From Oscillospiraceae bacterium (lineage in GTDB: Bacteria; Bacillota; Clostridia; Oscillospirales; CAG-272): a stretch of 64,000 bases of DNA. The translations under genes and the position numbers were made by a program. Location of the stretch: assembly GCA_015064395.1 (NCBI GenBank), contig SVSH01000011.1, forward strand, positions 210 through 64,209. Reading direction: 5' to 3'. The notes under the pieces were generated by a model. It was given only the letters and a program-made list of their open reading frames with translations, did no database searches and was not told the origin of the DNA. This document shows positions 10,441 through 54,220 of the stretch, piece after piece (position 1 is the first letter of the stretch; every line of letters begins with the position of its first letter).

Positions 10441-10850
10441 ACAACTTCGCTGACGGACGCGCGTACAGCCCACCTCGACTTTGTCGAGCTGCGCGCCGCG
10501 CTGTGCCGGATTTGAATGTTCATTCTTTCTCATCCGAGAAAGAACGAACCAAGAAAGCGGACTAAGGGGTTTAATACCCCTTAGAACCCCGCAAAACCTC
10601 TTGCTTTCCATATCTGCCGCTCGTGGTAGCTATATGGCGAGAAATGCGCAAGAAGCATATATGTCTTTCTCCTCTGTCCTCTTTGTAGAGCGGCAACACC
10701 AGGGGGTCCCCAGGGGGAACGCCTGGGCATCTTTCTTGGTCACTTCTTGGGATGTGCCAAGAAGTGACATCAGCAAACCGGTACAGCTCAGCGCGCACCA
10801 AAGGTGCGCAGTATGAGCGTCCGTAGAAGAAGTTGTATCAACTTTAGCAA
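10441..10850. repeat. Family-1 structured intergenic element, copy A (core reversed, central module absent)
   Basis: Imperfect terminal inverted repeats ACAACTTC..ACGGACGC / GCGTCCGT..GAAGTTGT; end hairpins at 10518-10556 and 10732-10768; core homologous to the other copies. Confidence 0.85.
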
Positions 10851-10879
10851 AATCAAATTCTCTCCCCCGAGGTGCACCT

Positions 10880-11881
10880 ATGACCACACCCGACTCGTTA
10901 CAATCTTATATTTTTCCCAAGAAAATCCTAAAATTCCGCCCCGACGGCAGCTTCAAGATCTGCTGCTTCTCCGACCTGCATCAGACCATCGACTATGACG
11001 AGCGGACGCTTGCCGCCATGCACGCCATCATCGAAAAAGAGGACCCCGATCTGGTTCTCCTTGGCGGCGACTTGTGGAACGAAAAGCCGGACGCGACCGT
11101 AGAACAGCTCCGCGAATTTCTGGACGTTTTCACTTCTCCCATGGAGCAAAGGAGCATCCCCTGGGCCCACGTATACGGCAACCACGACCACGACATTCTC
11201 ATGGATCGCCGACTCATGCAGTCCATCTTTGAGAGCTACCCCAACTGCGTGTCGGGCCACACCGAGCAAGGGGTGGACGGCGTCTCCAACTTCCTGCTCC
11301 CCATCCGCTCGTCGGACGAGAGCCGCGTTGCTTTTGCCGTTTGGGGACTCGATACCCACAATCTGTCTGATCGCTTACACTTGCGAAACGGCGTTAATCT
11401 GCGCATGGCACATCAAGCGCCCGACCTTCCCTATGGCACCTGCCACTGGGATTTCGTGCACTTCAATCAGCTCCGCTGGTACTACGACACCTCCGAGGCG
11501 CTCGAAGCCTACAACGGCGCTCCCGTCGACACTCTGATGCTCATGCACGCCCCCATTTTGGAGTTTGGCATCTGCATGAAAAATCCCGAGCGCACAGGAC
11601 TTACCGGCGACGCACTCGAAACGCTGTTTTCGGGCTCGCTCAATTCGGGGCTTCTTGCCACCGTTCTGCAACGGGGCGACGTGCGCGCCATCGTCAGCGG
11701 ACATATGCACGACGACAATTTCTCGGCCGAATACTGCGGCGTCAAGCTGTGCTTTGACGGTTCGATCGGCTTCCGCGGCACCGAAGCGGACATCCGCCGC
11801 TGTGCCCGCATCTTTACGTTGAACGAGACGGCGACCGACCGCATCGACACCCATCTCGTCTACGCCAGAGACGTACTGTAA
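10880..11881 (+). CDS. Calcineurin-like metallophosphoesterase
   Basis: SDLH, GGD, GNHD and GHMH motifs. Confidence 0.88.
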   Translation: MTTPDSLQSYIFPKKILKFRPDGSFKICCFSDLHQTIDYDERTLAAMHAIIEKEDPDLVLLGGDLWNEKPDATVEQLREFLDVFTSPMEQRSIPWAHVYGNHDHDILMDRRLMQSIFESYPNCVSGHTEQGVDGVSNFLLPIRSSDESRVAFAVWGLDTHNLSDRLHLRNGVNLRMAHQAPDLPYGTCHWDFVHFNQLRWYYDTSEALEAYNGAPVDTLMLMHAPILEFGICMKNPERTGLTGDALETLFSGSLNSGLLATVLQRGDVRAIVSGHMHDDNFSAEYCGVKLCFDGSIGFRGTEADIRRCARIFTLNETATDRIDTHLVYARDVL

Positions 11882-11913
11882 CGAAAATCAATGAAATGTA
11901 GATAGAGGATATT

Positions 11914-14149: not shown

Positions 14150-15325
14150 ATGTCAGACGAAAAAATCACCCCTGAACAGGTCGAAATGCTGGAAAGCGCT
14201 TTTTTGAACGCGCGCCTCGGCTTGATCCTGGAGCGCCTTGCGCAAAGCGATTGCACGCTGGGCAATTTTGAAGCCACCCTTGCAGCGCTTATGAAAGAAT
14301 ACTCCATTGGATCCGAAGAGCTGGAAACGGTCAAAAACAGCGCAAATTTTGACGCTCCCCTGCCGGACGAGGCCTTTTTGCCCGCATGCATCGCCGCGCT
14401 GATGCTCGAGTCGTCGCGCTTGATGGAATTCATCCCCCAGGGTGTCGAGCAAATCAACCGCCTTGCTCTTCACCAGTCGGCAGAGCAGCATCGAAACGCC
14501 ATGTTTGATCCTGCCATTCTCGCAGATACCGCCACCAGAACCGGCGCTTCCATGAGCACGCTGCGCGAGCTTGCCAATCAGCAGGCCAAGGATCCCAATT
14601 CCACGCTGTGGGAGGGCTTCAAGGAGAGAATGAAAAATTTTGATCCCCAATGGAACTTCTTGCGTGGCGACCGGACTCGCGGTGTGTTCCAATACTGTGA
14701 TGCCACGGACTATGAATACGCCCTTTCCATGTTTATGGGAGAGGATATGGACGAAGAGGCTCCCGTCTTTGACCGCATGGCATCCTGCTTTGTTAATATG
14801 GAAAAGGATGAGCTGACTGACGGCTACGTGGAGCAGATGTGCCGCATCATGCCTAAGTTCTACATGTACAGTGATGAATTGGTCGGTCTTCACCGCGACA
14901 CCGACAAGGCCGTAGACATATACGAAGATGCGCTGAAGGCCCGCCCCTCTACCACCCCTGCCAATCCCCGCTTCACCGCCGACGTCTTCCCCGGCGTCAT
15001 CAAAACGGCCGAGATGCTCGAGCAAGAGCGTCAGGCAGCGGCCGAGGCCGCTCAAAAAGCAGCGGAAGAAGCCGAGGCTGCACGTGCTGAATTTGCAGAG
15101 AAGATCAAAAAGTTTGATGGTATTCGCCTCATTGCACTGATTGCCAGCGCTGTTTTGCTCGTGCTGATGCTGACCGTTTGGCGCGCTTTGTACGTTCTTC
15201 CCTTCATGATTACGATGGTGGTCATCAACGCCGTCAACACCTATTTCTACGTCCGTTCCAGAGGACCCAAGCACCCCTTGTCCATCATTTCCATCATCCT
15301 GACGATCCTCTATTTCGTGATCTGA
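14150..15325 (+). CDS. Hypothetical protein with a coiled coil and C-terminal transmembrane segments
   Basis: GGAGG RBS; TTGACA-17-TACTAT promoter at 14071-14099; AAAEAAQKAAEE helix; hydrophobic C-terminus. Confidence 0.75.
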   Translation: MSDEKITPEQVEMLESAFLNARLGLILERLAQSDCTLGNFEATLAALMKEYSIGSEELETVKNSANFDAPLPDEAFLPACIAALMLESSRLMEFIPQGVEQINRLALHQSAEQHRNAMFDPAILADTATRTGASMSTLRELANQQAKDPNSTLWEGFKERMKNFDPQWNFLRGDRTRGVFQYCDATDYEYALSMFMGEDMDEEAPVFDRMASCFVNMEKDELTDGYVEQMCRIMPKFYMYSDELVGLHRDTDKAVDIYEDALKARPSTTPANPRFTADVFPGVIKTAEMLEQERQAAAEAAQKAAEEAEAARAEFAEKIKKFDGIRLIALIASAVLLVLMLTVWRALYVLPFMITMVVINAVNTYFYVRSRGPKHPLSIISIILTILYFVI

Positions 15326-15569: not shown

Positions 15570-15570
15570 G

Positions 15571-16078
15571 GCTAAATTTCAAACAACTGCTCCTCTTGAC
15601 GCGCACACAGCTTCGCGCGTGCGCTGTACCGGCTTTGATGTCCTTTCTTTGTCACTGAACAAAGAAAGGACGAAAGAAAATCAGCCCAGGCGTTCCCCCT
15701 GGGGACCCCCTCCTTTGCCGCTCTGCAAGGGAAAAGACGAGAGGTCACATGAACACTTTTGGTGCTGTGCCTCGCCTTTAGCCAACACGAGCGGCAGGCG
15801 GAGAAAGCAAGGGCTCTTGCCCTAAAGTGAGCGCGGTCTTTCTTTAAGCCGCGCTCGCAAGCGCTGAAGATGTAGGCTTTTGCGTCGTGTTGCGCGGAGC
15901 GAGAGCGCAGCGCCCACTAAGACGCACGGCAGGGTTCCAAGGGACATTAGGTCCCTTGGCGCGTTTCTTGGTTACTTCTTGGCGCGTGCCAAGAAGTAAC
16001 GCAAAAAGCCGGCACAGATCAGCGCGCGCTGAAAGCGCGCAGTATGATCGTCCCGAGAAGCAGTAGCTAAAAATTCAG
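15571..16078 (+). repeat. Family-1 element, copy B
   Basis: Starts GCTAAATTTCAAACAAC; end hairpins at 15640-15679 and 15964-16000; core CACGAGCGGCAGGCGGAGAAAGCAAG. Confidence 0.9.
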
Positions 16079-21565: not shown

Positions 21566-22465
21566 ATGCAAAACCAACATATCCCCCCTTGTGCCAAGGA
21601 GACACGCGCGCTGGCACGCGAAACACTGAAGGGCCAGTGGCCCATCGCCATTCTGGTCAATTTCCTGGCGGGAATTCTGGGCGGTTCCGGCAGTAGCTCG
21701 CCCCAATTCAACGTAGACCTCAGCGGTCTTGACTTCAACGTTGACCTGCCCACGCCCCCCTCCGACGACATTGGCATCATCGGCGGTTCTGATTTTGCCG
21801 TCCAGTTTTCGACCGCTTTGCAGTCGCTGTGGCCTATCTTGATCCCCTTTGTGATTTCCGTCCTGGCCGTTTCGCTTGTCTTTCTTGTCATCGGCCCTTG
21901 CATTCACTGGGGGCTGTGCCGCTTCCGCCTGGGCTTGGTAGACGGGGAGCAACCGGGTGTCGGCACGCTGTTTTCCGGCTTTGGTAATATGTTCCTCAAG
22001 GCACTGGGACTTTCGCTGGTGCAGGCCGTGATCATCTTTCTGATATCGCTCGCCGTCTTCATTCCCGCCATGGTGATTGGCATCGTCTCCGCCATCTTTG
22101 AGACCACGGTGGTGTTGATCCCGTTGATCTTTGTGATCGCCATTGCCGGTTCTGCCGCTATGATCATTGTTGCCTACCGCTTCAGCATGAGCTTTTACAT
22201 TTTGGCCGACAACCCCGACATGGACATTATGGGCACGCTGCACGAGTCGGCCCGCATGATGAAGGGCAATAAGTGGCGCCTGTTTTGCCTGCAGATCAGC
22301 TTTATCGGCTGGTCGCTGCTCTGCGTGCTGACGGGCGGCTTGGGAGCGATCGTACTGGCTCCCTACACCGGACAAGCCGAGGCTGTCTTTTATCATCACG
22401 TCTCGGGCCGTGCCGCCGTTCGCGAGGCAGTGGAGGAATTGGCAGAGATCAGTGAGGGATTGTAA
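21566..22465 (+). CDS. DUF975-family membrane protein
   Basis: YILADNP...ESARMMKGNKWRLFCLQISFIGW...PY pattern. Confidence 0.82.
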   Translation: MQNQHIPPCAKETRALARETLKGQWPIAILVNFLAGILGGSGSSSPQFNVDLSGLDFNVDLPTPPSDDIGIIGGSDFAVQFSTALQSLWPILIPFVISVLAVSLVFLVIGPCIHWGLCRFRLGLVDGEQPGVGTLFSGFGNMFLKALGLSLVQAVIIFLISLAVFIPAMVIGIVSAIFETTVVLIPLIFVIAIAGSAAMIIVAYRFSMSFYILADNPDMDIMGTLHESARMMKGNKWRLFCLQISFIGWSLLCVLTGGLGAIVLAPYTGQAEAVFYHHVSGRAAVREAVEELAEISEGL

Positions 22466-22475
22466 TCAGGTTTTT

Positions 22476-22955
22476 CACAAATCCTCCTACAGCCTCGCAC
22501 AGCTCACCTCGACTTCGTCGAGCTGCGCGCGCTCGGTGACAAGTATATGTTACTTCTTGCCTCGTGGCAAGAAGTAACCAAGAAACACGCCAAAGGGCCT
22601 AATGCCCTTTGGATTCCCGCAGTGCGCCACGGTGAAATAAATTTCACCTGATTGTGGCGCAAAAGCATACATCTTCAGCGCTTGCAAACGCGAGTTAAAG
22701 AAACTCGCGCTCACTTCAGAGCAAAAGCCCTTGCTTTCTCTGCCTGCCGCTCGTGTAGGCTAAAGTTGAGGCACAGCATTAAAGGTTTATATGTGATCTC
22801 TCTTGTTCCTCTTTGAAGAGCGGCAATGCCGGGGGTTCCCAGGGGGAACGCCTGGGTTCATTTTCTTGGTTACTTCTTTGTTGAATGACAAAGAAGTAAC
22901 ATTATGCCAACGCCGCCGCGTTGTGGCGGCGACAAACAAAAGAAGAAGTTGTTAC
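22476..22955 (-). repeat. Family-1 element, copy C (core reversed)
   Basis: Reverse-complement core CTTGCTTTCTCTGCCTGCCGCTCGTG and CCCAGGGGGAACGCCTGGG; two GTTACTTCTT..AAGAAGTAAC hairpins. Confidence 0.88.
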
Positions 22956-22997
22956 ACTATCAGATAAACCAAATCATCTCCCCCCGAAAGGAACACC

Positions 22998-24257
22998 ATG
23001 CAGTATTCAAATGAAATTCTAACCCTTGCCGCCAAGGCAGAAAAAGACCTTGCCCCCCATTTTGCCCGCATCGACCGCATCGCCTTTGAAAACACCCAAC
23101 GCGTCATGGATGCTTTCCGTGAATTTCGCGTTTCCGACTCCATGTTTGGCTCTACCTCGGGCTACGGCTACGATGACCGTGGCCGAGACACGCTCGACGA
23201 GATCTGGGCAAGCGTCATGGGCGCCGAAGCCGCCTTTGTCCGTCAGCAGATTGTCAGCGGCACACAGGCCCTGACCATCGGACTGTTCGGCCTGCTCCGC
23301 CCGGGCGACCTGATGCTGTCCGTTGCAGGCAAGCCCTACGACACACTGGAGGAGGTCATCGGCATCGTTGGCACCCCCGGCGACGGCTCCTTGCGCGATT
23401 TTGGCGTGGACTACGCCCAGATCGATCTGACAAAGGAGGGCAAATTTGACTTCCCTGCCATTCGCGAGGCACTTCTTGCCAATATGGGAAGAGTTAAGAT
23501 GGTGTTCGTTCAGCGCTCCAAGGGATACCTCAACCGCCGCACGCTGACGGTGGACGAGATCGGTGAGCTCGTTACCTTTGTCAAGAGCATCTCGCCCGAC
23601 TCTTACGTCGTTGTCGATAACTGCTACGGCGAGTTTGTCGAGGACCGCGAGCCCACTGCCGTTGGCGCCGATATGATTATCGGCTCACTCATCAAAAACC
23701 CCGGTGGCGGCATGGCCGAGACGGGCGGCTATATTGCCGGTACTCGCCGCGCCGTCGAGCTGGCCAGCTACCGTCTGACCTCGGTTGGCTGCGGCACGGA
23801 GGTGGGCGCGACGTTGGGACAGAATAAAATGATGTACAAGGGGCTGTTCTACGCCCCCCATACCGTCGCCCAAGCCCTCAAGAGCGCACATCTGGTCGCC
23901 TACCTGTTCGAGCAGCTGGGCTGTGCCGTCGAGCCGCGTTGGGACGAGGCTCGCTCGGATATTATCCAAACCGTCATCACAGGCTCTGCCGAGGGCCTTT
24001 GCGCCTTCTGCCGCGGCATTCAGGCGGGGTCGCCTGTCGATTCGTTCGTCACGCCCGAGCCTTGGGCAATGCCGGGCTATACCGACGAGGTCATCATGGC
24101 CGCGGGTGCCTTTACCCAAGGCTCGTCCATCGAGATGAGCGCGGACGGTCCGCTCCGCCCCCCCTACACCGCCTATTTCCAGGGCGGTCTGACCTATGAG
24201 AGCGCCAAGATCGGCATTCTTGCCGCCGCTGACCGGCTGTTGCAGAGCAAAGCATAA
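22998..24257 (+). CDS. PLP-dependent YnbB / aluminium-resistance (methionine gamma-lyase-like) protein
   Basis: GYGYDDRGRD, GKPYDTLEEVIG, VDNCYGEFVE, GSLIKNPGGG, YFQGGLT. Confidence 0.9.
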   Translation: MQYSNEILTLAAKAEKDLAPHFARIDRIAFENTQRVMDAFREFRVSDSMFGSTSGYGYDDRGRDTLDEIWASVMGAEAAFVRQQIVSGTQALTIGLFGLLRPGDLMLSVAGKPYDTLEEVIGIVGTPGDGSLRDFGVDYAQIDLTKEGKFDFPAIREALLANMGRVKMVFVQRSKGYLNRRTLTVDEIGELVTFVKSISPDSYVVVDNCYGEFVEDREPTAVGADMIIGSLIKNPGGGMAETGGYIAGTRRAVELASYRLTSVGCGTEVGATLGQNKMMYKGLFYAPHTVAQALKSAHLVAYLFEQLGCAVEPRWDEARSDIIQTVITGSAEGLCAFCRGIQAGSPVDSFVTPEPWAMPGYTDEVIMAAGAFTQGSSIEMSADGPLRPPYTAYFQGGLTYESAKIGILAAADRLLQSKA

Positions 24258-24352
24258 AAGACACGAAAAGTTTACGATTGTCCCCTATTTTCGTCATGTC
24301 TTTGTGTTATGCTGATCCCAGAAATTCAAAACCACGGAAGGACATTTGATCC

Positions 24353-25405
24353 ATGAAACAACGCTTACTGCGTACGCTTACGCTACTTTTGGCCGTCTGC
24401 CTGCTCGGCGCTTGCCTGATCGGCTGTAAATCGCTCGAGGACGCTGACCTGCCCGAAAATATGAAGCATGCCACCGTCGAGGGCGCCTACTATCGACTGT
24501 ATCTCCCCAACGACTGGAATCTGCTGACCGAAACGGGCGTCTCGGGCGGCTACGCCTCGATGCAGAACAAGGCGGTGATCTACGTTAAGGAATATGACAA
24601 TCCCGACGCGCTGACGGCGGCCGACTTTTGGTCTGCCTTTCTCGTTCCTGCTCTGCTCCAAACCTTTGATGACGGTCAGGACGTTTCGTCTCTGACCCCA
24701 ATGGAGACCAAGCTGAACGAGCACGACGCCCTTGCCATCGCCTACGAGGGCACCCGTGAAATGGTGACCTATCAAGGTCAGGACGTCGTCTGCCCCAAGG
24801 GCAACAAAATTTACGTTCTGACGTATTGTGCAAGAAAGGACCTGTACGAGGGCTATCTGGGTGTATTTGACACCGTCAAAACCAACTTTGCCTTTAAGGA
24901 CACGCCGTTTGAGCCCGAGGAGCCCATCAACACGGTTGATCCCGATGCCGAAGCCCCCGAGGGTATGCAGCTGGCATCCAACGACGACGTGGCTTATCGC
25001 TTCTACGTTCCCAAGAGTTGGGTACTGGACAAGAACCTCCCCACCTCGTCGGCATACGTCTCCGAGAGTGACCGCTCCAACGTGAACGTGACCGTGTATA
25101 TGCCCGACGAGGGCGCGTTTGCCACAGTGGATGATTATTTCAACTTCTGCTTGGACGAGCTCAAGCAGGCTATGACCATCCAAGGCGAGGTTGAGAGCGA
25201 GGAGATCACGATAGACGGTCGCAAAGGAAAGATATATCGCTACACCGCAAACCTCCAGGGCAGAACCTACCGTTTCGCCCAGGCGATCGCTTCTTATCGC
25301 GGCATGATCTACACCGTGACCTACACGGCCACGCCGGACGCCTTCGGCACTCACTACCAGACATATCTCGATATTCTCTCTGCCTTTGATTTCAGAGGAA
25401 ACTGA
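24353..25405 (+). CDS. Lipoprotein with two tandem PsbP/DcrB-like domains
   Basis: Lipobox LIGC; internal duplication YRLYLPNDW...LTY versus YRFYVPKSW...VTY. Confidence 0.7.
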   Translation: MKQRLLRTLTLLLAVCLLGACLIGCKSLEDADLPENMKHATVEGAYYRLYLPNDWNLLTETGVSGGYASMQNKAVIYVKEYDNPDALTAADFWSAFLVPALLQTFDDGQDVSSLTPMETKLNEHDALAIAYEGTREMVTYQGQDVVCPKGNKIYVLTYCARKDLYEGYLGVFDTVKTNFAFKDTPFEPEEPINTVDPDAEAPEGMQLASNDDVAYRFYVPKSWVLDKNLPTSSAYVSESDRSNVNVTVYMPDEGAFATVDDYFNFCLDELKQAMTIQGEVESEEITIDGRKGKIYRYTANLQGRTYRFAQAIASYRGMIYTVTYTATPDAFGTHYQTYLDILSAFDFRGN

Positions 25406-39519: not shown

Positions 39520-39548
39520 TTGACAAGCGAAATAAATTGTGCTATGAT
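39520..39548 (+). promoter_or_regulatory. SigA promoter of the tRNA cluster
   Basis: TTGACA-17nt-TATGAT. Confidence 0.75.
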
Positions 39549-39575
39549 ATACGGGCGGTTCACAAGCATGCACAC

Positions 39576-39649
<74 letters not shown>

Positions 39650-39654
39650 TGAGT

Positions 39655-39731
39655 GTGCCTTTAGCTCAGTCGGATAGAGCAACTGCCTTCTAAGCAGTAG
39701 GTCGGGGGTTCGAATCCCTCAAGGCACGCCA
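39655..39731 (+). tRNA. tRNA-Arg(UCU)
   Basis: GTGCCTT/AAGGCAC acceptor, ACTGC-CTTCTAA-GCAGT anticodon arm, CCA. Confidence 0.95.
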
Positions 39732-39740
39732 TTTTTTTAC

Positions 39741-39818
39741 GGTGGGTATAGCTAAGTTGGTTATAGCGCCAGGTTGTGGCCCTGGAGGCCGTGGGTTCGA
39801 ATCCCATTACTCACCCCA
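39741..39818 (+). tRNA. tRNA-His(GUG)
   Basis: G-1 plus GTGGGTA/TACTCAC acceptor, CCAGG-TTGTGGC-CCTGG anticodon arm, C discriminator, CCA. Confidence 0.95.
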
Positions 39819-39956
39819 GAATAAGAAAAGCACGGAGTTCACTCCGTGCTTTTCTTATTCTGAGCGAACGAACCGATTCAGAGCCCCGCCATTTGCTTTG
39901 CAAATGGCAAGTTTGCGCATAGCTGTACTTTGATTTGTGCTAAACTGTGGCGCAAA

Positions 39957-39988
39957 CGTGGGTTCCCAATCCCATTACTCACCCCAGA
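39957..39988 (+). repeat. Second copy of the tRNA-His 3' end
   Basis: CGTGGGTTCCCAATCCCATTACTCACCCCAGA versus CGTGGGTTCGAATCCCATTACTCACCCCAGA at 39790-39820; followed by a terminator hairpin. Confidence 0.85.
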
Positions 39989-40083
39989 AACGAAAGAAGC
40001 AGGTTTTTAATCTGCTTCTTTTTTATTTTGCAGGAGATGGAGTTCAAACAACTTCTCCTTTTGACGCGCGTGGGGAGGAGAGT

Positions 40084-40670
40084 GTTTGAAATTTAGTTTA
40101 GCTTTCTATCCTTGGGCGCGACACAACGCGTCGCGCTATGTGAGTCTGCTACTTCTTGGCGTTTCCCAAGAAGTAGCCAAGAAGGAACCCAAGGGGACAC
40201 CCCTTGGAACCCCTCCCCCGACGGCTTTTCGAGCGCCGTCGGGACGTTTATTTTTGCCAGCCTCCGCCATCTTGGGCGCATGAGCGCACGCCCAAGATGG
40301 GTGCGCTTTGGCAAGAACTCTTGCTTTCTCCGCCTGCCGCTCGTGTTGGCAGAATTGGAGGCACAGCACGAAAAGCGTATATGCCAGAGTTTTATGGTTG
40401 TGCTTGCACAACGCCCGTGTTCAGCGGGCGAATAAAACTCCCTATTTCGGCGCAAGCCGAAATGTGTGATCTCTCGTCCTCCTCTTTGCAGAGCGGCAAT
40501 ACCAGGGGGAACGCCTGGGCGTCCTTTCTTTCGCCATTTCTTTGCGACGAGGCAAAGAAATGGCATCCCTGCCGGTACAGCGCGGCGCGCAGCTCGACAA
40601 AGTCGAGGTGGGCTGTACGCGCGTCAAAAGAAGAAGTTGTTTGAAATTTAGCTTTCTATCCTTGGGCGCG
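40084..40670 (-). repeat. Family-1 element, copy G (reverse, direct terminal repeats, internal insertion)
   Basis: GTTTGAAATTTAG..CTTTCTATCCTTGGGCGCG at 40084 and 40639; additional end fragment at 40041-40072. Confidence 0.9.
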
Positions 40671-40750
40671 CCATTCGTAGAAGAAGATGTTAAAAGTCCC
40701 CTAAAACTAAAAAACAGCAAGGCAACCTTCCGCTTGCCTTGCTGTTTCCT

Positions 40751-42019
40751 TTATTCTTCTACCAATTCAATATCCGCACCAACGGCACGCAGTTTTCCAA
40801 CAATATCATAATATCCCCGCTCAATGGTCTCAGCAACCTCCAAAATGCAGGTCTCGCCCTCGGCCGCAAGGCCCGCAATCACCATTGCCGCCCCTGCACG
40901 CAGGTCGGTGGAGGTCACGGTCGCACCGTGCAGCGTCCGCACACCAACGATAGTCGCGGTGGAATTCTGATCATCCACGTTGATAGCCGCGCCCATGCGC
41001 TGCAGCTCCTCGACGTAGCGGAACCGCTTTTTGAAGACGTTTTCCGTCACCGTGCTGATGCCGTCCGCGATAGACAAAAGTGCCGTTATCTGGGGTTGCA
41101 TATCCGTCGGAAAGCCGGGATAAGGCACGGCCTGAATATTGGCACTGCCAAACGAGCCCGTGGTTTTGACCGTAATGCGGTCGCCCTCGTCAAGAACGGT
41201 AATTCCCATCTCTCGCATTTTGGCGCTGACCGCGTCCAAATGGCGGGAGATGACGTTGTCCAAGACCACTTCCCCCTTCGTCGCGGCGGCGGCAACCATA
41301 TACGTACCCGCCTCGATCATATCGGGAATGATGGTATAATGGCACCCATGCAGCTTCTCCACGCCCCGCACCTTGATGATGGAGGTACCGGCGCCCGTGA
41401 TATGTGCGCCACAGTTGTTGAGAAAGCTGGCCAGATCGACGATATGGGGCTCGTGCGCCGCGTTTTCAATGGTGGTCACACCCTCGGCTGTGCAGGCGGC
41501 CATCAGAATATTGGCCGTCGCGCCGACCGAAATATTATCCATGATGATCTTGGTGCCCTTGAGCCGGCCGTGGACAAAGGCCGAAACGTAGCCGTCGTCG
41601 TCCGTCACGGTTGCGCCCAGTGCCACAAAGCCTTTTTTATGCAGGTCGATGGGGCGCGCACCGAAATTACAACCGCCCGACAGTCCCACCTTGGCGCGGG
41701 AGAAGCGGGCAAGCTCGGAGCCGATCAGATAAGTCGAGCCGCGAAGCCGACGCACCAGAGCCGCCGGTGAGGTCCCCTGTCGCACGCCGCGGGTGTCGAT
41801 CTCCACCTGCGTAGGGCCGGAGCGTCGAACCGTCGCACCCATGTTGGAAAGAATATCCAACGCAACTTGAATGTCGCCCACCGGAGGAAGATTATCCACG
41901 GTGCACACGTCATTTGTAATGATCGTAGCAAATAATATGGGCAGTGCGGCGTTTTTCATGCCGCCGATCTCGATATGTCCCTTGAGCGGTCGCCCGCCCC
42001 GGATCTTGATTTTTTTCAT
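40751..42019 (-). CDS. murA: UDP-N-acetylglucosamine 1-carboxyvinyltransferase
   Basis: GMKNAALP, GGCNFGARPIDLH, SVGATAN, PYPGFPTDMQP, TDLRAGAA, ERGY. Confidence 0.95.
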   Translation of the reverse strand: MKKIKIRGGRPLKGHIEIGGMKNAALPILFATIITNDVCTVDNLPPVGDIQVALDILSNMGATVRRSGPTQVEIDTRGVRQGTSPAALVRRLRGSTYLIGSELARFSRAKVGLSGGCNFGARPIDLHKKGFVALGATVTDDDGYVSAFVHGRLKGTKIIMDNISVGATANILMAACTAEGVTTIENAAHEPHIVDLASFLNNCGAHITGAGTSIIKVRGVEKLHGCHYTIIPDMIEAGTYMVAAAATKGEVVLDNVISRHLDAVSAKMREMGITVLDEGDRITVKTTGSFGSANIQAVPYPGFPTDMQPQITALLSIADGISTVTENVFKKRFRYVEELQRMGAAINVDDQNSTATIVGVRTLHGATVTSTDLRAGAAMVIAGLAAEGETCILEVAETIERGYYDIVGKLRAVGADIELVEE

Positions 42020-42110
42020 AAAACAAACCTCGCAAGCCTAAAACTCACACGAACGAACAATTCCCGTCAACAGGAAACCATTGACAGTATATGCGTTCTC
42101 TGACGAAAGG

Positions 42111-43310
42111 TCACAGCAGTGACATACGGTAGGTAGCGATGGGGCGCGTCTCACCGCGGGCAATGACGGTCTCCGCTTCGCCCTCTCGAACGATGATAGC
42201 TTGAGCCGTCTCGGAAACGACAGGCGCCCACTCCGTCTCGGGCATGGCGTCCCCCTTGCGGTAAATCAGGCAAACGAGTCCATCATCTGCGGGTGAAACC
42301 AACGTATGGGCAGGCGCGTCCGTCCAACGGAGTGCCGTAGCGGCATCAAAGGGATGGGTGGCAATATCAACCAGGTCGGACACGATCGCCCCTGCTGTGG
42401 GCAGCTTGCCTGCGCCGCGGCCATAGAACAGCGTCTGCCCCAGCATATCGGTGTCGATCAGGACGCCGTTGAACACGTCGTCAATATTGGCGAGAGGATT
42501 TTGGCGAGAGACAAAGCAGGGTGCGACCCAGAGGGTCAGGTGATCCTCCACTCTCCCCATGTGCCCGATGAGCTTGATGGCGCAATTCATCGCTTTGGCA
42601 ATAGAAACGTCCGCCTCGGTGATATAGCGGATGCCCTCCACCGGTACGGTGTTGGGATCGATGCGCAAGCCCGTCGCCATCGCGGTCAAAATCACGATCT
42701 TGCGGGCGGCATCGTGGCCATCCACGTCCGCCGAAGGATCGCGCTCGGCATAGCCCTTCTGTTGCGCCTCGCAAAGTGCCGTTTCAAACGAGACACCCCC
42801 ACGTGCCATACGGGTGAGGATATAGTTAGTCGTACCGTTGAGAATCCCGTCGATGGTCTGGACACGGTTGGCCGCCATGTCCTGGGAAAGCGGGCGCAGC
42901 ACGGGAATGCCGCCGCCAACGCTGGCCTCAAACAGATAACGAACCCCTTTTTCCGCTGCCAAAGACAGCAGCTCCGTGCCAAAATTGGCTACGACCTCCT
43001 TGTTGGAGGTAATGACCGACTTGCCCGCCTCAAGGGACGCACGAGTAAACTCATACGCAGGGTGTGAGCCACCCATCATTTCGATGACGACGTCGACCTC
43101 GGGGTCATTGACAATGGTATTAAAATCATGTACGATGCGGTCAGCGAAGGGGCTATCGGGAAAATCACGCAGATCGAGTATATATCGAATATCCGCACCG
43201 CGGCCGGTCGCGTCCACAATACGGTCCTGGTTTTCTGTGATTACTTGTGCAACGCCACTGCCCACAACGCCAAAGCCGAGCAGGGCAACCGTCAACTGTT
43301 TGTTCTTCAT
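42111..43310 (-). CDS. hom: Homoserine dehydrogenase
   Basis: GFGVVGSG, TSNKE, EASVGGGIP, GILNGTTNYIL, YGRGAGKLPTA. Confidence 0.94.
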   Translation of the reverse strand: MKNKQLTVALLGFGVVGSGVAQVITENQDRIVDATGRGADIRYILDLRDFPDSPFADRIVHDFNTIVNDPEVDVVIEMMGGSHPAYEFTRASLEAGKSVITSNKEVVANFGTELLSLAAEKGVRYLFEASVGGGIPVLRPLSQDMAANRVQTIDGILNGTTNYILTRMARGGVSFETALCEAQQKGYAERDPSADVDGHDAARKIVILTAMATGLRIDPNTVPVEGIRYITEADVSIAKAMNCAIKLIGHMGRVEDHLTLWVAPCFVSRQNPLANIDDVFNGVLIDTDMLGQTLFYGRGAGKLPTAGAIVSDLVDIATHPFDAATALRWTDAPAHTLVSPADDGLVCLIYRKGDAMPETEWAPVVSETAQAIIVREGEAETVIARGETRPIATYRMSLL

Positions 43311-43469
43311 AGGGCTTCCTCCCTTACGTGTCACATGGGAATGCATATAGTATACCATATTTTTATACATCTTGTAAATAATTTTCTTGAAAAAATCGAA
43401 AAAGTATGATATGATAGTATGAAGAACACGAAAATCCCCCAAAAACGGGAAGAAACGGAGGTATGAAGC

Positions 43470-44033
43470 ATGGCAAGCTCGGCGCTGGGCGGCAAGCGAA
43501 ACGTCAAGATTTTTCTGTTGTATCTGATGCAAAACGTTCGCATTCCCCTCGATTTTGCAACACTCAATGACATGGTCATGCAAACGGACTACGTCATGTA
43601 TCTGGACATGGCCGAGGCGTTTCATGAAATGCTGGACGACGCCCTGATCGAAACGGCACCCGCCGAGGAGGGCGTCACCGACGACACCCCCCGCTATATC
43701 GTCACGCAAAAGGGACGCATCGTGGCAGAGCAGCTGCACAGTGAATTGCTCCCCACCATTTTGGACGAGAGCCTGCGCTGTGCCCTGCGCTATCTGGATT
43801 TTCGCCGCCGCGGCATCACCACGCACTGCACCGTCACCCCTGCCGCCGACGGCACGGCAGAATTTTTCTGCTCGGTCGAGCAGCACGGCAAGGTGCTGTT
43901 TGAGACCCGTGTCAGCGTCGATTCCATGACGCGCGCACGCCAAATGGAGGACAACTTCCGCGCCCGCCCCGAGGCCATCTACAAGGGTATGTGGTCCCTG
44001 CTTTCGGGTAACGTGAATTATTTGTTTAGTTAA
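43470..44033 (+). CDS. DUF4364-like winged-helix protein
   Basis: KIFLLYLM...Y.VTQKG...IYK pattern. Confidence 0.7.
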   Translation: MASSALGGKRNVKIFLLYLMQNVRIPLDFATLNDMVMQTDYVMYLDMAEAFHEMLDDALIETAPAEEGVTDDTPRYIVTQKGRIVAEQLHSELLPTILDESLRCALRYLDFRRRGITTHCTVTPAADGTAEFFCSVEQHGKVLFETRVSVDSMTRARQMEDNFRARPEAIYKGMWSLLSGNVNYLFS

Positions 44034-44050
44034 AAGACGGATTATGATTA

Positions 44051-44098
44051 GGGGAACTTTTTGAAAAAAGTTCCCCTATGACCCCTCAAAAACTTTTA
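44051..44098 (+). repeat. Family-2 short hairpin unit
   Basis: GGGGAACTTTTTGAAAAAAGTTCCCC...CCCCTCAAAAACTTT, as at 50215 and (reverse) 29727. Confidence 0.7.
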
Positions 44099-44302
44099 TA
44101 GAAGGAAAAGAAGCGTAGCCGGGGCAACTTCTTCTGGCCCTGTATGGGAAAGAAAATTTGCTATTCGGCAGATACTACCGCAAGAAGCGGGGCCCCCACC
44201 CCATCTTCTCCACTATATGAGAGAACCTATGGGAAATGTTGCCTGTAAAAAGCAGAATTGTCCCCACCGGATCCACGAGTCTAAACAAGAAAGGAGAATA
44301 TC

Positions 44303-44881
44303 ATGCCAAACGAGCTTCGTCCCGACACACTGCACCTGGCTAAGGATGGCGATCAAAGCGCCTTTGCTACTTTGCTGGCGCAGTATACACCCTTGATCGA
44401 GCATCAGCTCGTAAGTGCACGCGCCCGTCGCCCTGACATTCTCCCCGAGGATGAAAAGGATCTGCGGCAGGAAGCATATCTTGCCTTTTATCGGGCGCTG
44501 ATGAGCTTCGACGTTTCCCAAGGCGAGGTCAGCTTCGGGTTGTACGCCAAGATCTGCATTGAGAACGGATTGATCTCGGCACTCCGTAAGATGCGGCCGT
44601 CTGCCGAGTCTCTTGACACCGAGCGCATGGCCGAGCTGCCTGCGGGAAACGAGGGCGATCCGACCCGACGATTGCGCGAGCAAGAGGACTATGAGGCGCT
44701 GTGCCGCCGCATCTCGCTCGTGCTCTCGCCGTATGAAAACACCATCTGGCAGCGCTACGTAGCCGGGCGGACCGCCGCGGAGATCGCCGCTGAATTGGGG
44801 CGCGATCACCGTTCCATCCACAACGCCATTTATCGCATTCGGCACAAGCTGCGCGGGGTGGAGGATCTGAAAAAGCATTGA
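44303..44881 (+). CDS. Sigma-70-family sigma factor (SigH-like)
   Basis: GDQSAFATLL..Y, DLRQEA, SFGLYAKICIEN, LSPYE, SIHNAIYRIRHKL. Confidence 0.85.
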   Translation: MPNELRPDTLHLAKDGDQSAFATLLAQYTPLIEHQLVSARARRPDILPEDEKDLRQEAYLAFYRALMSFDVSQGEVSFGLYAKICIENGLISALRKMRPSAESLDTERMAELPAGNEGDPTRRLREQEDYEALCRRISLVLSPYENTIWQRYVAGRTAAEIAAELGRDHRSIHNAIYRIRHKLRGVEDLKKH

Positions 44882-45006
44882 AGCAAAACAGAGGCAAGAG
44901 GACCGATCGGTCCTCTTGCCTCTTTGCTTGGAGAATCATTTATATTGAACTCATTTCCCTGACGAGCATCAAGCCGCATTCGCAGAAGCAATTCAGCAAA
45001 GGCTCC

Positions 45007-45819
45007 TCAAAGCTCCTTTGCCCACCGAACGGCATGCGAAAACCACGTTGCCGCCACAGGTGACAGGAGCGCCGGATTTCCTAACCACGTTCGCTCGTCG
45101 CACAGCGAAAGTCCGTGTATTCCGTGAGGATAGACATGAAGCTCGAAGGGAATGTGATGCTCCGACAGCGCGCCGGCAAACAAAAGAGAGTTTTCGACCG
45201 GTACGTTGCTGTCGTCCGCCGTGTGCCAAAGAAAAGCAGGGGGCGTCGTCTCGCTGACGGCAAGCTCCAGCGAGTATTCCTTTTGCTCGTCGTAGCTCGA
45301 CTCCTTGCCTGCCAGGTTCAAAAACGATCCTCGGTGTGCGTGTTTGCCTGCCGTGATCACAGGATAGCACAGGACCATGCCGTCCGGGCGTCCCATGCGT
45401 GTCGGAGCCTCCCCGAAGGCCGCGCGGACTGCACGGTGATCCCACAGCACCCCGGCCGATGCGGCCAGGTGCCCGCCGGCAGAGAAACCGGTGATCAGGA
45501 TGTGTTCGGGATCGACGTTGTATTCGGCCGCGTGCTCACGAACGTGGCGAATGGCAAGGCTCGCCTCGACCAGAGGCTCGTAATTTCCGGCGTGCTCGCA
45601 AATGCCGTAGTGCAGTACAAACGCCTGAAAACCGGCGTTCAGCCAGGCAAGGGCGACGACCTCGTCCTCCCGCTCGGACAATCCGTGGTAGCCACCACCC
45701 GGACAGACGATCACGGCGCGGCGGGGCGTCGGGGGAACACGCGTCATTTCTCTATGCAGATAGGCAACGAGATGGGCGTGGGGGTATTGCGGGAAAATAT
45801 GCAGCGTTTCAATTTTCAT
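45007..45819 (-). CDS. Alpha/beta hydrolase (esterase)
   Basis: CPGGGY, GFSAGGHLA, DDSNVP, HG. Confidence 0.9.
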   Translation of the reverse strand: MKIETLHIFPQYPHAHLVAYLHREMTRVPPTPRRAVIVCPGGGYHGLSEREDEVVALAWLNAGFQAFVLHYGICEHAGNYEPLVEASLAIRHVREHAAEYNVDPEHILITGFSAGGHLAASAGVLWDHRAVRAAFGEAPTRMGRPDGMVLCYPVITAGKHAHRGSFLNLAGKESSYDEQKEYSLELAVSETTPPAFLWHTADDSNVPVENSLLFAGALSEHHIPFELHVYPHGIHGLSLCDERTWLGNPALLSPVAATWFSHAVRWAKEL

Positions 45820-50214: not shown

Positions 50215-50462
50215 GCGAGGGGAAAACTTTTTTGAAAAAAGTTTTCCCCTCGCGCTCCCTTTTCAAAAAACTGAAAAGCACCAAGGGATAGCAGCCCCAT
50301 CAAGTTTTCGGTCAAGCCTTTTTCAAAAGGCTTGCAGGTCGAGGACGGAGTCCTCGTCGCTCTCCGCAGAGAGCGAAATCTTTTTATCCTTTCCAAGCGC
50401 CCGAAGGGGTGAATTTCCCGCGTGCGGGAAAGAGGGGAAACCACAAGTGGGGTTTCCCCTGT
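50215..50462 (+). repeat. Family-2 composite repeat
   Basis: GGGGAAAACTTTTTTGAAAAAAGTTTTCCCC unit plus a unit collinear with 18758-18924. Confidence 0.85.
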
Positions 50463-51586: not shown

Positions 51587-52945
51587 ATGCTCCATTATTT
51601 TGGAACCGACGGCTTTCGCGGTGAGGCCGGAAAAACGCTGACGGCCTCTCAGGCCTTTCGCATCGGCCGCTTTTTAGGCCACCACGATCAAAAGGGAGGA
51701 ACGCGCGCCCGCGTGGTGCTGGGCAAGGATACCCGCCGTTCCTGTTATATGCTGGAATACGCCCTGGCGGCAGGTCTGTGCGCCTCGGGGGCAGACGTTT
51801 ATCGACTACACGTCATTTCCACGCCTTGCGTCTGTCATGCGACGAAAGAGGGAGATTTCGATTGCGGCGTCATGATCTCCGCCTCGCACAATCCCTTCTT
51901 TGACAACGGCATCAAGATCATCAACTCCCGTGGGGAGAAAATGGACGACGAGCTACTTGCCGGGATCGAAGAGTATTTGGATAAGGAGGAGGACGATCTT
52001 CCTTTTGCAACCGGCAGTGAGATCGGAAGCGTCTTCGATTACAATGAGGGGCGGCGGCGCTATGTGGAGCATGTGCTCTCGCTGGCAAAGCAGTCTCTTT
52101 CGGGACTTCGCATCGGACTTGACTGCGCCAACGGAAGCGCCTGGGAGGTCGCCCGGGACGTGTTTGATGCCCTGGGGGCCGAGACGTATATCATTGGGGA
52201 CTCCCCCGATGGGTTGAATATCAACAAGGGGGTGGGGTCGACCCACATTGAGGCACTCTCTGCCTTTGTGCAACAGCATCATCTGGATGCCGGCTTTGCC
52301 TTTGACGGTGATGCGGACCGTTGCCTTGCCGTCGACGAGCAGGGGCGCGTGATCACGGGCGATCACATTCTTTATATTTTTGCCGCCGATTGGCAGCGGC
52401 GAGGGATGCTGGCAGGCAACACCGTCGTCACCACCATCATGTCCAACATGGGGCTGTACCGCGCGCTGGACGAAGCGGGCATTCGCCACGTCGAAACGCC
52501 GGTGGGTGACAAGCACGTCTATGACCGCATGGTAAAGGAAGGATATTGTCTGGGCGGCGAGCAGTCGGGGCACATCATTCTGGGTCCTTACGCCACCACC
52601 GGGGACGGCCTTCTGACCGCAACACAGTTAGCCGAGGTCATGACAAGCCGCCGCCTGCCGCTTTCCCGCCTGGCGGGCGCGGTACGCCTATATCCACAGG
52701 TCTTACGAAACCTACCTGTGTCTGACCAAGAAGCGGTCCTTGGGAGCCCTACCGTCCACAAGGCAGTGGAAGAGGCGACCGTGGCCTTGGGCCGGCAGGG
52801 GCGGATCCTGTTGCGCAAGAGTGGCACCGAGCCTGTCGTGCGAGTCATGGTCGAAGCGGAGCGCGAGGAATGGTGCCGACATTGGGCGGATCACATTTGT
52901 GAGAGCATTCGGGCGCAGGGCTTTCTCTGCGAGAGAGGACGGTAA
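51587..52945 (+). CDS. glmM: Phosphoglucosamine mutase
   Basis: FGTDG, ISASHNP, FDGDADR, GGEQSGH, RKSGTEP. Confidence 0.92.
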   Translation: MLHYFGTDGFRGEAGKTLTASQAFRIGRFLGHHDQKGGTRARVVLGKDTRRSCYMLEYALAAGLCASGADVYRLHVISTPCVCHATKEGDFDCGVMISASHNPFFDNGIKIINSRGEKMDDELLAGIEEYLDKEEDDLPFATGSEIGSVFDYNEGRRRYVEHVLSLAKQSLSGLRIGLDCANGSAWEVARDVFDALGAETYIIGDSPDGLNINKGVGSTHIEALSAFVQQHHLDAGFAFDGDADRCLAVDEQGRVITGDHILYIFAADWQRRGMLAGNTVVTTIMSNMGLYRALDEAGIRHVETPVGDKHVYDRMVKEGYCLGGEQSGHIILGPYATTGDGLLTATQLAEVMTSRRLPLSRLAGAVRLYPQVLRNLPVSDQEAVLGSPTVHKAVEEATVALGRQGRILLRKSGTEPVVRVMVEAEREEWCRHWADHICESIRAQGFLCERGR

Positions 52946-52948
52946 CCT

Positions 52949-53623
52949 ATGGATCCAATCAAAGCGTCCCGTCTATGGCGCACCATGCAATCGCACACCC
53001 TGGCGTTCCCGCTTTTGCAAAGCGTCGACTACCCTTGGCAAGCGTTATCCGCGCTTTCCGATTTTATTCTCGATCTGGGGCGTTCCTTGCCAAAGGACGA
53101 ATACGAGGAGCTACTCCCTGCAGTTTGGGTGGCGCGTACCGCTCACATCGCGCCCACCGCGCAGCTGCATAAGGGCTGCATCATCGGCCATGACACCGAG
53201 GTGCGACAAGGAGCTTTCATTCGCGGGAATGTGTTGATCGGCGACGGCGTTGTGGTGGGTAACTCGACGGAGCTCAAGGGGTGCGTACTGTTTGACGGGG
53301 TGCAGGTGCCGCATTTTAACTACGTGGGGGATTCCATTCTCGGTCATCGGGCGCATTTAGGGGCGGGGGCTATCACCTCCAACGTCAAAAGCGACAAGAG
53401 TGAGGTGGTGATTCACTGTGGAAATTCACGCCTTTGCACCGGGCGTCGTAAGTTGGGCGCTTTATTGGGGGATTTCGTTGAGGTGGGCTGTAACAGCGTG
53501 CTCAATCCGGGGACGGTGATCGGGAGTGGGAGTGTGGTATATCCGCTCACATCGGTTCGCGGATATGTGGGAGAGAATTGTATTTATAAGGGTGAGGGGA
53601 GGATTGTGGCGAGGTTTGTTTGA
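52949..53623 (+). CDS. Hexapeptide-repeat (GlmU C-terminal-like) acyltransferase
   Basis: FIRG, GNSTELK, PHFNYVGDSILG, LGAG..SN, RKLGA..GD..GCNSVLNPG. Confidence 0.85.
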   Translation: MDPIKASRLWRTMQSHTLAFPLLQSVDYPWQALSALSDFILDLGRSLPKDEYEELLPAVWVARTAHIAPTAQLHKGCIIGHDTEVRQGAFIRGNVLIGDGVVVGNSTELKGCVLFDGVQVPHFNYVGDSILGHRAHLGAGAITSNVKSDKSEVVIHCGNSRLCTGRRKLGALLGDFVEVGCNSVLNPGTVIGSGSVVYPLTSVRGYVGENCIYKGEGRIVARFV

Positions 53624-54220
53624 ATGTCAAACAACTTCTCCTCCCAACGCTCACACTGTGCTTCGCACGCGTTCGCTGTACCGGCATGAGTGTTCATTCT
53701 TTGCCGCGCGGCAAAGAACGAACCAAGAAAACGCGCCCAGGCGTTCCCCCTGGGAACCCCCTGGCGTTGCCGCTTTGCAAAGAAAATCAAGAGAGATCAC
53801 ATAAACGCTTTTAATGCTGTGCCTCAACTTAAGACAGCACGAGCGGCAGGCGGGGAAAGCAAGGGCTTTTGCTTTCCGTTTTGCAGAAAAGCTATGCTAT
53901 CATAAGCCGCGTTGAACGACAGCAAGAGCTTTCTACTATCGCATCTTGCGTGCTACTTCCGTGTTTGCAAGTTTCTTTAACTTGCAAACGCAAGCGTTGA
54001 AGATGCAGGCTTTTGCGTCGTGTTGCGCGGAGCGAGAGCGCAGCGCCCACAAAGACGCATTGCGGGTTTCCAAAGGGCTCCAGGCCCTTTGGCGCCCTTC
54101 TTCCGCCACTTCTTGGGGCGCGCCAAGAAGTGGCATTAAACGCACAGCGCGCCGCGTTGTGGCGCGCCCAAGGAGAGAAAGCGATATTTCAAACGACTTC
54201 TTCTATTGATACTCACACCG
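53621..54220 (+). repeat. Family-1 element, copy H (internal insertion, direct terminal repeats)
   Basis: TCAAACAACTTCTCC at the start and TTTCAAACGACTTCTTC at 54187; end hairpin at 53692-53730. Confidence 0.9.

Follow-up and report, generated by a model that had tools for sequence, protein, structure and literature searches.

Near-palindromic modular repeats occupy many intergenic spacers in the genome of an Oscillospiraceae bacterium

The DNA analysed here (the window, 64,000 nucleotides) corresponds to positions 210-64209 of contig C1 in the genome of an Oscillospiraceae bacterium, such that a contig coordinate minus 209 gives the window coordinate used throughout. The source genome, termed G000, is a draft metagenome-assembled genome (MAG) of 1,887,984 bp in 50 contigs, with ~55% GC and 90% completeness. 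Spacers in this window carry members of a family of noncoding elements, each 400-600 bp (~470 bp) long. A sequence-only reading of the window had proposed eight copies, and repeat finding and module hidden Markov models (HMMs) located all of them within a few tens of bases of the proposed starts. Repeat finding also recovered families of 150-250 nt that are common to these copies, plus the short motifs quoted for them.

Elements are composed of an arm (A, or A′ when inverted), a core (C), an optional module (V), and a distal end that can be a truncated arm variant (B). The first copy (10430-10848, no strand assigned) carries arms A and A′ around an inverted core, and lies 9 nt past the stop codon of an SDR gene and 32 nt ahead of the start of a metallophosphoesterase gene. 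Its ends, measured on the copy as placed at 10441, are inverted over 35 nt at 77%. An A-C-V-B element on the plus strand (15570-16024, with a decayed right end to ~16079) is located between an open reading frame (ORF) at 14150-15325 and the 3′ end of a PEPCK gene. The third copy, in reverse orientation (B-V-C-A, minus strand, ~22470-22964; 22517-22964 by module HMMs), separates a DUF975 gene from a Met gamma-lyase-like gene. A plus-strand element at 27352-27860 (27352-27854 by module HMMs), comprising an A-C-V-B unit and then a partial second A end (27822-27860), begins immediately 3′ of the terminator hairpin (27313-27346) of a rubrerythrin gene.

Two plus-strand units stand in tandem, the first A-C-B (33638-34096) and the second A-C-V-B (34097-34577). 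The next full element, in reverse orientation on the minus strand (40043-40656; 40097-40656 by module HMMs), has ends that are 97% complementary over 29 nt and lies at a synteny breakpoint beside a tRNA cluster. The last copy is a plus-strand A-C-V-B element plus a partial A end (53620-54221). Ten flanking proteins were scanned with Pfam: nine match housekeeping families (SDR, phosphoesterase, PEPCK, DUF975, Met gamma-lyase-like, rubrerythrin, MnmE, methyltransferase, and EPSP synthase-type), and the product of ORF 14150-15325 has no match. The suggestion that the window encodes no transposase holds for these ten proteins, the other window ORFs being unscanned.

The family extends far beyond the window. 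An HMM of 472 positions, seeded on window positions 34093-34580 (the second tandem unit) and iterated genome-wide, produced 349 matches in G000, and BLAST searches of the whole genome with seven window spacers as queries gave 126 merged loci (56,637 bp). Locus annotation with four module HMMs (A, B, C, and V), with overlaps resolved greedily, yielded 118 intergenic loci, or ~3% of 1.89 Mb, and a 21-base signature pattern matched 120 times compared to 0 times for its reversed control. No called gene is overlapped by any of the 118 loci, as judged with our own crude codon-usage caller (1,450 genes, 82% coding). The proposal of an abundant, intergenic, noncoding, hairpin-rich element with ordered modules is well founded. 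Highly repeated intergenic DNA amounts to 70.9 kb in G000, of which the family accounts for 62.7 kb, and the family is present in 136 of the 492 spacers of 200 bp or more. It is not AT-rich, with a GC fraction of 0.476-0.556 in the 1 kb bins that hold elements versus 0.553 for contig C1.

Full-length HMM matches occur on both strands at the same loci, and self-complementarity of the consensus reaches 68% across positions 13-472. Thus, the whole element is a long imperfect palindrome, a property that the sequence-only reading had missed. Two inverted arms, each with three hairpins, flank the core. Arm A (~140 bp) consists of the end motif (GCTAAATTTCAAACAACTTC), a GC-rich hairpin, a TTCTT...AAGAA hairpin, the linker GAAAGAAAAGG, and a CCAAGG...CCTTGG hairpin. 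The core (~118 bp) is closed by an invariant pairing of TGCCGCTC with GAGCGGCA, which inverted-repeat finding revealed in two regions, and module V (~105 bp) is variable. The distal end is either an inverted arm A′ or variant B, which terminates in GCGCGCCGCGTTGTGGCGCGC. The end motif and its inverted counterpart, the TTCTT/AAGAA hairpins, the core pairing, and GCGCGCCGCGTTGTGGCGCGC had all been read from the sequence beforehand, and each is present in the copies.

The commonest layouts are A-C-A′, A-C-V-A′, A-C-V-B, and A-C-B, and (A-C-B)n arrays are also seen. Across the 118 annotated loci, the module HMMs identified 22 half elements (A-C) and a few solo arms, while 14 loci hold two or three cores, mostly as tandem units. 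The arm ends are variable (TTCTACGGACGC, TCCTTTTGACGC, TCCTCCCCACGC, and others) and may bear a likeness to a CodY box. In many copies, an extra inverted G-rich/C-rich stretch (GACGGGGGAGCAGGGGGG ... CCCCCCTGCTCCCCCGTC) is found beyond the arm ends, for example at window positions 27860-27900 and at G000:C47:8970-8992 and 9587-9610. The true termini of some subfamilies are therefore located ~20 nt further out.

The stems vary in a compensated manner. In 138 TTCTT hairpins, the five outer pairs occur in 12 combinations and are 99.9% paired, compared to 68% (maximum 76%) when the partners are shuffled. When 148 arms were folded together with RNAalifold, no usable consensus fold was obtained, as hairpin lengths differ, and stems were scored per copy by stem finding and in an alignment of 16 arms. 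The same program applied to these 16 arms, drawn from five species, returned the same helix of 13 pairs, 7 of which carry double changes; hairpin 3, which is out of register between subtypes, was left out of the pair counts. The earlier observation that stems vary while linkers stay fixed is borne out by both data sets. However, the variants are inherited subfamilies, so the copies are not independent events. Moreover, template-switch repair can keep palindromes perfect without selection. Covariation of the stems is not proof of selection.

Isolated stem mismatches carry a further signal. On the strand that reads outward, 112 are G.T and 9 are A.C when all copies are counted, and 39 are G.T and 9 are A.C among unique hairpins. 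Most of the G.T cases derive from two or three inherited positions, such as GTTCG...TGAAC in 46 copies, and singleton mismatches are G.T and A.C about equally often, without bias. This pattern hints at a constraint at the RNA level without demonstrating it.

For the 112 loci that have two neighbouring genes, the neighbours are co-directional at 83, convergent at 21, and divergent at 8, versus a background of 1047, 179, and 174, respectively. Start codons are faced by 102 of the 230 locus ends, of which 42 stand at a distance of 21-60 nt and just one is closer than that; the remaining 128 face stop codons, 33 of them at 20 nt or less. Terminator hairpins are abutted by many locus ends. Units typically span the spacer from just past a stop codon or terminator to 21-60 nt ahead of the next start codon.

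The full unit was matched in 8 of 12 congeneric genomes and in none of the 28 genomes that represented other genera in the family and order. The 21-base signature pattern had no match in 300 further genomes of the order (152 other genera), a result that says nothing about streptococci. A 20-mer scan of a species-representative genome collection gave matches mainly in seven MAG records from animal guts labelled as Eubacteriales, Oscillospiraceae, or Clostridia bacterium; isolated single matches elsewhere are expected by chance. All holders listed by our scans of genome records and sequencing runs are of gut or faecal origin. Because related copies are found in those 8 congeneric genomes, and in at least seven independently deposited MAG records, an assembly artefact is excluded. 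A plasmid or phage origin was rejected, as neither a plasmid nor a phage collection matched the family.

The sequence-only reading did not recognise the elements as a named family, and no credible match to an Rfam covariance model was obtained. At the gathering threshold, the window yielded four tRNAs only, and at an E-value limit of 10 the interval 33600-34650 gave 15 hits of 11-20 bits, far under the gathering scores. Our literature search likewise found no description of the family and no paper that joins "miniature inverted-repeat transposable" with "Oscillospiraceae."

Comparisons among copies and between genomes bear on the age and turnover of the elements. The 2,947 pairwise locus matches that reach 200 bp or more have a median identity of 75.7% and a 95th percentile of 85.4%; the maximum, 94.4%, belongs to a pair that joins two contig ends and may be a single locus. 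Because near-identical pairs are absent, the elements are old and have undergone no recent burst. Even so, individual sites differ between genomes. At the site of the 27352 element, five relatives carry five different versions, among them a ~75 bp mini-element made of two ends (G002), a ~150 bp form, a core with one arm, and full forms with a core inverted relative to the window (G011 and G012).

The sister genome G012 has a contig syntenic with the window. The 15570 and 53620 elements have orthologues there with the same layout, whereas the 10430, 22517, and 27352 elements differ in content from those at the orthologous sites. Repeats 33638-34577 and 40043-40656 lie at synteny breaks and have no counterpart at either flank in G012. 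Five window elements were compared in this respect. Each of them aligns with its best paralogues in G000 over 234-533 bp at 76-88%, whereas its alignment to the element at the orthologous site in G012 is confined to patches of 41-215 bp. This likeness among paralogues reflects either gene conversion between copies or their replacement through re-insertion once the species had diverged.

When window positions 26572-45007 are compared with G012:C72, the blocks 26623-33552 and 40750-44851 are rearranged or inverted, and the breakpoints fall at or beside the repeat loci 33638-34577 and 40043-40656. The interval of G012 that is orthologous to ORF 14150-15325 (plus strand, 391 aa, directly upstream of the 15570 element) spans 705 bp only and is missing the ORF. 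Also near a breakpoint, positions 39941-39990 are a near-duplicate of the last ~29 nt of a tRNA-His gene (39742-39818), ~150 bp downstream of that gene. Synteny with G012 and G009 stops exactly at 39990, adjoining the 40043 element, and the duplicate looks like an old attachment-site remnant.

We consider it reasonably probable that the family represents a new, genus-specific group of mosaic intergenic repeats of the BOX type or the bacterial interspersed mosaic element (BIME) type, which are nonautonomous and near-palindromic, reside in transcribed spacers, and are homogenised or replaced within genomes. The initial proposal of an undescribed system is not sustained at this level, as both architecture and behaviour fit known modular small interspersed repeats (BOX-type, BIME, and elements resembling miniature inverted-repeat transposable elements, or MITEs). 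A nonautonomous element mobilised in trans is still the best general reading, with the proposed parallel to repetitive extragenic palindromic (REP) doublets (REPINs) and REP-associated tyrosine transposases (RAYTs) surviving only as an analogy.

Our comparison of classes rests on the definitions given in PMC3049150, PMC2817692, and PMC6006769. BOX-type repeats of Streptococcus pneumoniae and Streptococcus suis, as portrayed in the first of these, have terminal modules of ~50-133 nt around optional internal modules; the modules are boxA, a repeated boxB, and boxC, with S. suis also having boxE/boxF ends of ~115-133 nt. The repeats have a restricted range, transpose slowly, and are co-transcribed with genes (PMC3049150). 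With the repeats so described, the elements of G000 share several permutations of fixed terminal modules around optional or repeated internal ones, a copy number of about a hundred between the genes of a Firmicute genome of ~2 Mb, and a range of one or a few close species. Further common features are extensive predicted stem-loops, slow turnover, an uncertain mobiliser, enrichment between convergent genes, and presence in co-transcribed spacers. Unlike in the BOX repeats so described, the arms here are longer (~140 bp) with three hairpins each, the whole unit is near-palindromic, and tandem arrays are formed by whole units and not only by the inner module. Furthermore, ISSpn2 has been proposed as the insertion sequence (IS) behind BOX, whereas we found no IS with similar ends. 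The likeness to BOX drawn here is one of architecture and behaviour.

If this BOX/BIME-type reading is correct, the family would have spread, and would still be undergoing homogenisation or replacement, by a route that leaves no target-site duplication. Ectopic recombination or gene conversion, with the ~120 copies as partners, is one possible route, and another would be the action in trans of an enzyme of the HUH type that recognises hairpins in single-stranded DNA. The dispersed homology of the copies would also promote inversions and other rearrangements. Since the elements occupy transcribed spacers, an action of their hairpins on the mRNAs of adjacent genes is probable, through 3′ stabilisation, partial termination, or access to the ribosome-binding site (RBS), and such effects could be either side effects or a domesticated function.

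The ends of the elements were examined for the target-site duplications whose presence would point to a conventional transposition product. A flank repeat of 4 nt or more is present at 9 of 30 full elements, compared to 7.8 of 30 after shuffling, and none exceeds 5 nt, so the flanks agree at chance level. G000 has no match to rve, DDE_Tnp_1, DDE_Tnp_ISL3, the TnpB zinc ribbon, or an IS200-type Y1 protein, these being the only families searched, and no pair of arms in the genome encloses an ORF as judged with the module HMMs. An HUH-type route would fit the missing duplications. Strong Y1 hits in G002, G005, and G006 were considered as mobilisers and rejected, because they are ordinary IS200 TnpA proteins of 153-155 aa with no modules nearby.

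Weak Y1 hits in G011 and G012 led, via tblastn, to two RAYT-like genes in G000. One is intact and encodes P0001, a 180-aa protein with the HUH motif PNHLHIM (G000:C49:58761-59303; L139:162-704), and the other has an in-frame TGA codon (G000:C34:23054-23587). These genes raise the possibility that the elements are giant REPINs or BIMEs, moved as single-stranded hairpins by the RAYT of the genome. This explanation, which we regard as unlikely, draws on the existence of the two genes, the lack of target-site duplications, the capacity of the whole element to fold back, the failure to find a DDE transposase of the three families searched, and the GTAG-tagged REP doublets embedded in the composites (see below). 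P0001 matches the NCBIfam model NF047646 ("REP-associated tyrosine transposase") at 63 bits (E 2.6e-17), although this score is below the cut-off of 80, and its match to Pfam Y1_Tnp reaches 16 bits only.

However, the RAYT appears to have other cognate repeats. A GTAG-tagged REP hairpin (GGGCGAAC..GTTCGCCC) is present in 50 copies in G000, none inside a called gene, and the GTAG tag sits on a hairpin family (GTAGGGGCG..., 46 copies) other than the arm hairpins. These GTAG-tagged REPs/REPINs appear to be the cognate repeats of the RAYT and to be separate from the arms, whose hairpins have variable feet and no conserved GTAG or CGTC tag. They are embedded in some composites of the family, with 17 of 26 strict REP hits located within 150 bp of C or V modules or of a second repeat, U (see below), typically 9 bp after U. 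REPINs measure ~100 bp, whereas the unit here is ~470 bp, and the true GTAG family of the genome is both separate and smaller.

The genomic context of RAYT genes also fails to link them to the elements. The sequence-only reading had called for a search for copies around HUH genes; a RAYT is indeed present in the genome, but it is not flanked by arms, and no A, B, C, V, or U module (E 0.01 or better) lies within ~1.5 kb of the five RAYT loci examined (G000, G003, G020, G034, and G016). Moreover, 20 of the 41 genomes have a RAYT homologue, among them 11 of the 28 from other genera, which do not have the family, whereas G002 and G008, which do have it, gave no hit with the RAYT query, these two genomes being incomplete (78% and 81%). 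Because the arms are tagless, RAYT loci have no modules, and RAYT homologues occur in genera without the family, we do not file the elements as members of the REPIN/BIME group.

Nevertheless, the elements resemble the REP, BIME, and REPIN sequences of Escherichia coli, Pseudomonas, and Stenotrophomonas, as treated in PMC2817692 and PMC6006769, in being extragenic mosaics of alternating palindromic units with more than 100 copies, no target-site duplications, species or genus specificity, compensated stems, and a RAYT in the same genome. They differ from REPs as characterised there, which are 20-40 nt long, carry a GTAG or CGTC tag, and flank RAYT genes.

Some observations concern the REPs themselves. 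A REP/REPIN layout GTAGGGGCGAAC..GTTCGCCC..GGGCGTTC..GAACGCCCCTAC is found, for example, at ~330-380 of L141 (G000:C41:20400-21200). The RAYT-like coding sequences hold GTAG REP hairpins themselves (peptides VGANCVRPQ and GRPQVAPT), and the G011 homologue conserves the protein motif VGAINDRPQ at the position of the REP hairpin. The free REP doublet looks like the two RAYT-embedded hairpins joined.

The 22 half elements led us to a second repeat, termed U, which the sequence-only reading had missed. U is ~175 nt long and strand-specific, with 47 copies above 60 bits in G000, two of which are fragments. Its 5′ end is a covarying palindromic hairpin of 14 bp (GGGGAACTTTTTGAAAAAAGTTCCCC type). Of the 46 copies that have a neighbour upstream, 42 share the orientation of this gene, and the start of U is typically 9-23 nt past the stop codon; the gene downstream is co-oriented with 32 copies and opposed to 14. 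U has no Rfam match. A role for U as a "mobile promoter" was dismissed, because, although the conserved TGTTAGATT resembles an extended -10 element, there is no fitting -35 element and U tracks the upstream stop codon.

In the window, U occurs on the minus strand at 29628-29779 (the 14 bp hairpin plus ~150 nt), 20 nt past the stop codon of the upstream co-oriented gene, and on the plus strand at 44050-44222, 80 nt upstream of the gene at 44303. A partial copy with a weak match (model positions 2-84) lies on the plus strand at 50220-50308. In G012, the U repeat orthologous to that at 44050-44222 is followed by a core and an arm that are both missing in the window. Compared to G012, the stretch between U and the RBS at site 44222 has been replaced and not inserted.

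U and the half elements form composites with the order U, an optional REP doublet, C, A, and then an unrelated housekeeping gene. At 16 of the 22 half elements, the outer end of the arm lies 25-43 nt ahead of the start of a co-oriented gene, and 14 of the 15 such loci that were aligned carry U upstream. From their N-terminal sequences, we take the downstream genes to include aroQ-, purM-, purD-, glyA-, ilvB-, ilvD-, gyrB-, and dnaN-like genes. A terminator-like hairpin reads toward the gene in these composites, and such a hairpin with a T-rich tail reads outward in the arm. Two U-C-A composites were scanned for a sigma-70-type promoter; none was found, and the composites are therefore probably read through. 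They look like read-through intercistronic spacers that are built of repeats.

The composites also show a potential for pairing with the RBS. In 15 aligned leaders (contigs C21, C33, C34, C41, C44, and C49), the conserved UUUCUU linker ahead of the TTCTT hairpin can pair with the RBS region downstream, GAAAGGA(G), and this pairing is predicted by the consensus fold. A conserved C-run stands just ahead of the RBS region. Given these features, the elements could be functional transcribed RNA modules, that is, 5′ leaders or intercistronic elements that set mRNA stability, attenuation, and translation, with spread as a secondary matter. The directional half elements with U upstream, the outward terminator-like hairpin, the probable read-through, and the G.T bias on the outward-reading strand are all consistent with this explanation.

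We nonetheless find it rather doubtful that RNA function is primary. Full elements occur in either orientation (the core is oriented 29:21 between co-directional genes in a hand count of 50 full single-core elements), the G.T cases are mostly inherited with unbiased singletons, and the mismatches of the U hairpin show no wobble bias (2 G.U versus 4 A.C or C.A). Furthermore, three U-C-A composites gave no Rfam match at E of 0.1 or better, the downstream genes share no common function, and elements differ or are missing at orthologous sites. Public sequencing data were compared as well, namely two RNA runs that hold 5% of the words and two DNA runs, all in the form of contigs. The organism is present at ~5x in the DNA runs, while the RNA contigs scarcely cover it, place near nothing on the element bins, and thus weigh neither for nor against transcription. 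Joints in these data, which have sides of 20-43 nt inside repeats, were left out. The elements may have a function at the RNA level.

An ordinary MITE, derived by deletion from an IS with terminal inverted repeats and moved by a DDE transposase in trans, would account for the inverted ends, such as those of the 40043 copy, the length of the units, their strictly intergenic location, and their high degree of base pairing, and IS copies are often lost in MAG assembly. By the definition in PMC3049150, bacterial MITEs such as Correia elements, RUP, and Nezha are likewise noncoding, base-paired, intergenic, and present in many copies with inverted ends, and they can sit in transcripts and affect them. 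The inverted part, however, spans ~140 bp here versus ~20-40 bp in such MITEs. The family also departs from MITEs in having target-site duplications no more often than expected by chance, in not being AT-rich, and in having no near-identical copies and no parent IS among the families searched. The single rve genes of G012, G009, and G003 have no modules nearby and no flanking arms. Consequently, we judge a conventional MITE origin to be very improbable.

It is scarcely credible that the elements are invertible switches, with the arms as sites of recombination and a core whose inversion would control the expression of adjacent genes. The arms are inverted repeats, and the core is inverted at the 27352 site in two relatives. 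However, no sigma-70-type promoter was found in two composites or in the element cores within 22300-34800, long and diverged arms are unlike short exact recombinase sites, no recombinase is among the ten flanking genes scanned, and homologous recombination alone is expected to invert DNA between inverted repeats of 140 bp.

Several points weigh against interpreting the family as BOX/BIME-type mosaic repeats that spread and are homogenised within genomes. No mobilising enzyme or autonomous copy was found in the families searched, and an IS could be unassembled, given that G000 is a 90% complete MAG in 50 contigs. We infer mobility from distribution: orthologous sites were inspected as the sequence-only reading had advised, and a clean empty site with sharp ends was not found at 27352, 44222, 33638, or 40043. 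The greater likeness of paralogues than of orthologues comes from one sister genome, G012. The covariation counts are inflated, because the stem variants are inherited subfamilies, and the positional counts rest on a rough gene caller that misses some genes. Finally, two directional features hint at something beyond selfish DNA: a G.T mismatch retained by 46 copies becomes a G.U wobble solely on the strand that reads outward, and all 22 half elements read toward a start codon 25-43 nt away, following the strand-specific U.

Other repeats in the window were also noted. A tandem repeat at 6148-6500 (110 nt unit, 3.2 copies, 87% matches) starts from the 3′ end of a tRNA-Glu gene, and part of its unit recurs in other G000 spacers. 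Another lies at 1077-1576 (252 nt unit, 2.0 copies, 76% matches).

A more speculative idea, to which we give little credence, is that the elements and U together form genus-wide transcribed cassettes under selection at the RNA level. In each cassette, U would come after the stop codon and be succeeded by an optional GTAG REP doublet, with core and arm reading outward as far as the next RBS. The conserved G.U wobbles on the outward strand and the linker that complements the Shine-Dalgarno sequence would be the marks of this selection. More than 100 housekeeping operons would thus have the ends, stability, and translation of their mRNAs set by the hairpins, and an HUH (RAYT-like) enzyme would copy the cassettes from locus to locus as giant single strands that fold back. 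If this were true, the cassettes would be a domesticated "super-REPIN" regulatory layer in small genomes of gut Clostridia.

The BOX/BIME-type reading that we favour adds the family to the small list of mosaic repeats known from Firmicutes (BOX-type) and provides a natural set of compensated hairpins, while the REP hairpins inside RAYT coding sequence may be of interest for the biology of REPs and RAYTs. Synteny breakpoints are marked by the copies, which are also a probable cause of breaks in MAG assemblies, and the family could find use as a genus-specific marker or strain-typing target. The host group, uncultured Clostridia of the Oscillospiraceae type, is common in the guts of ruminants and other animals. 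Because the family dominates the repeated intergenic DNA and occupies so large a share of the long spacers, it shapes most long 5′ and 3′ untranslated regions in G000, and studies of gene regulation in these organisms must reckon with it.

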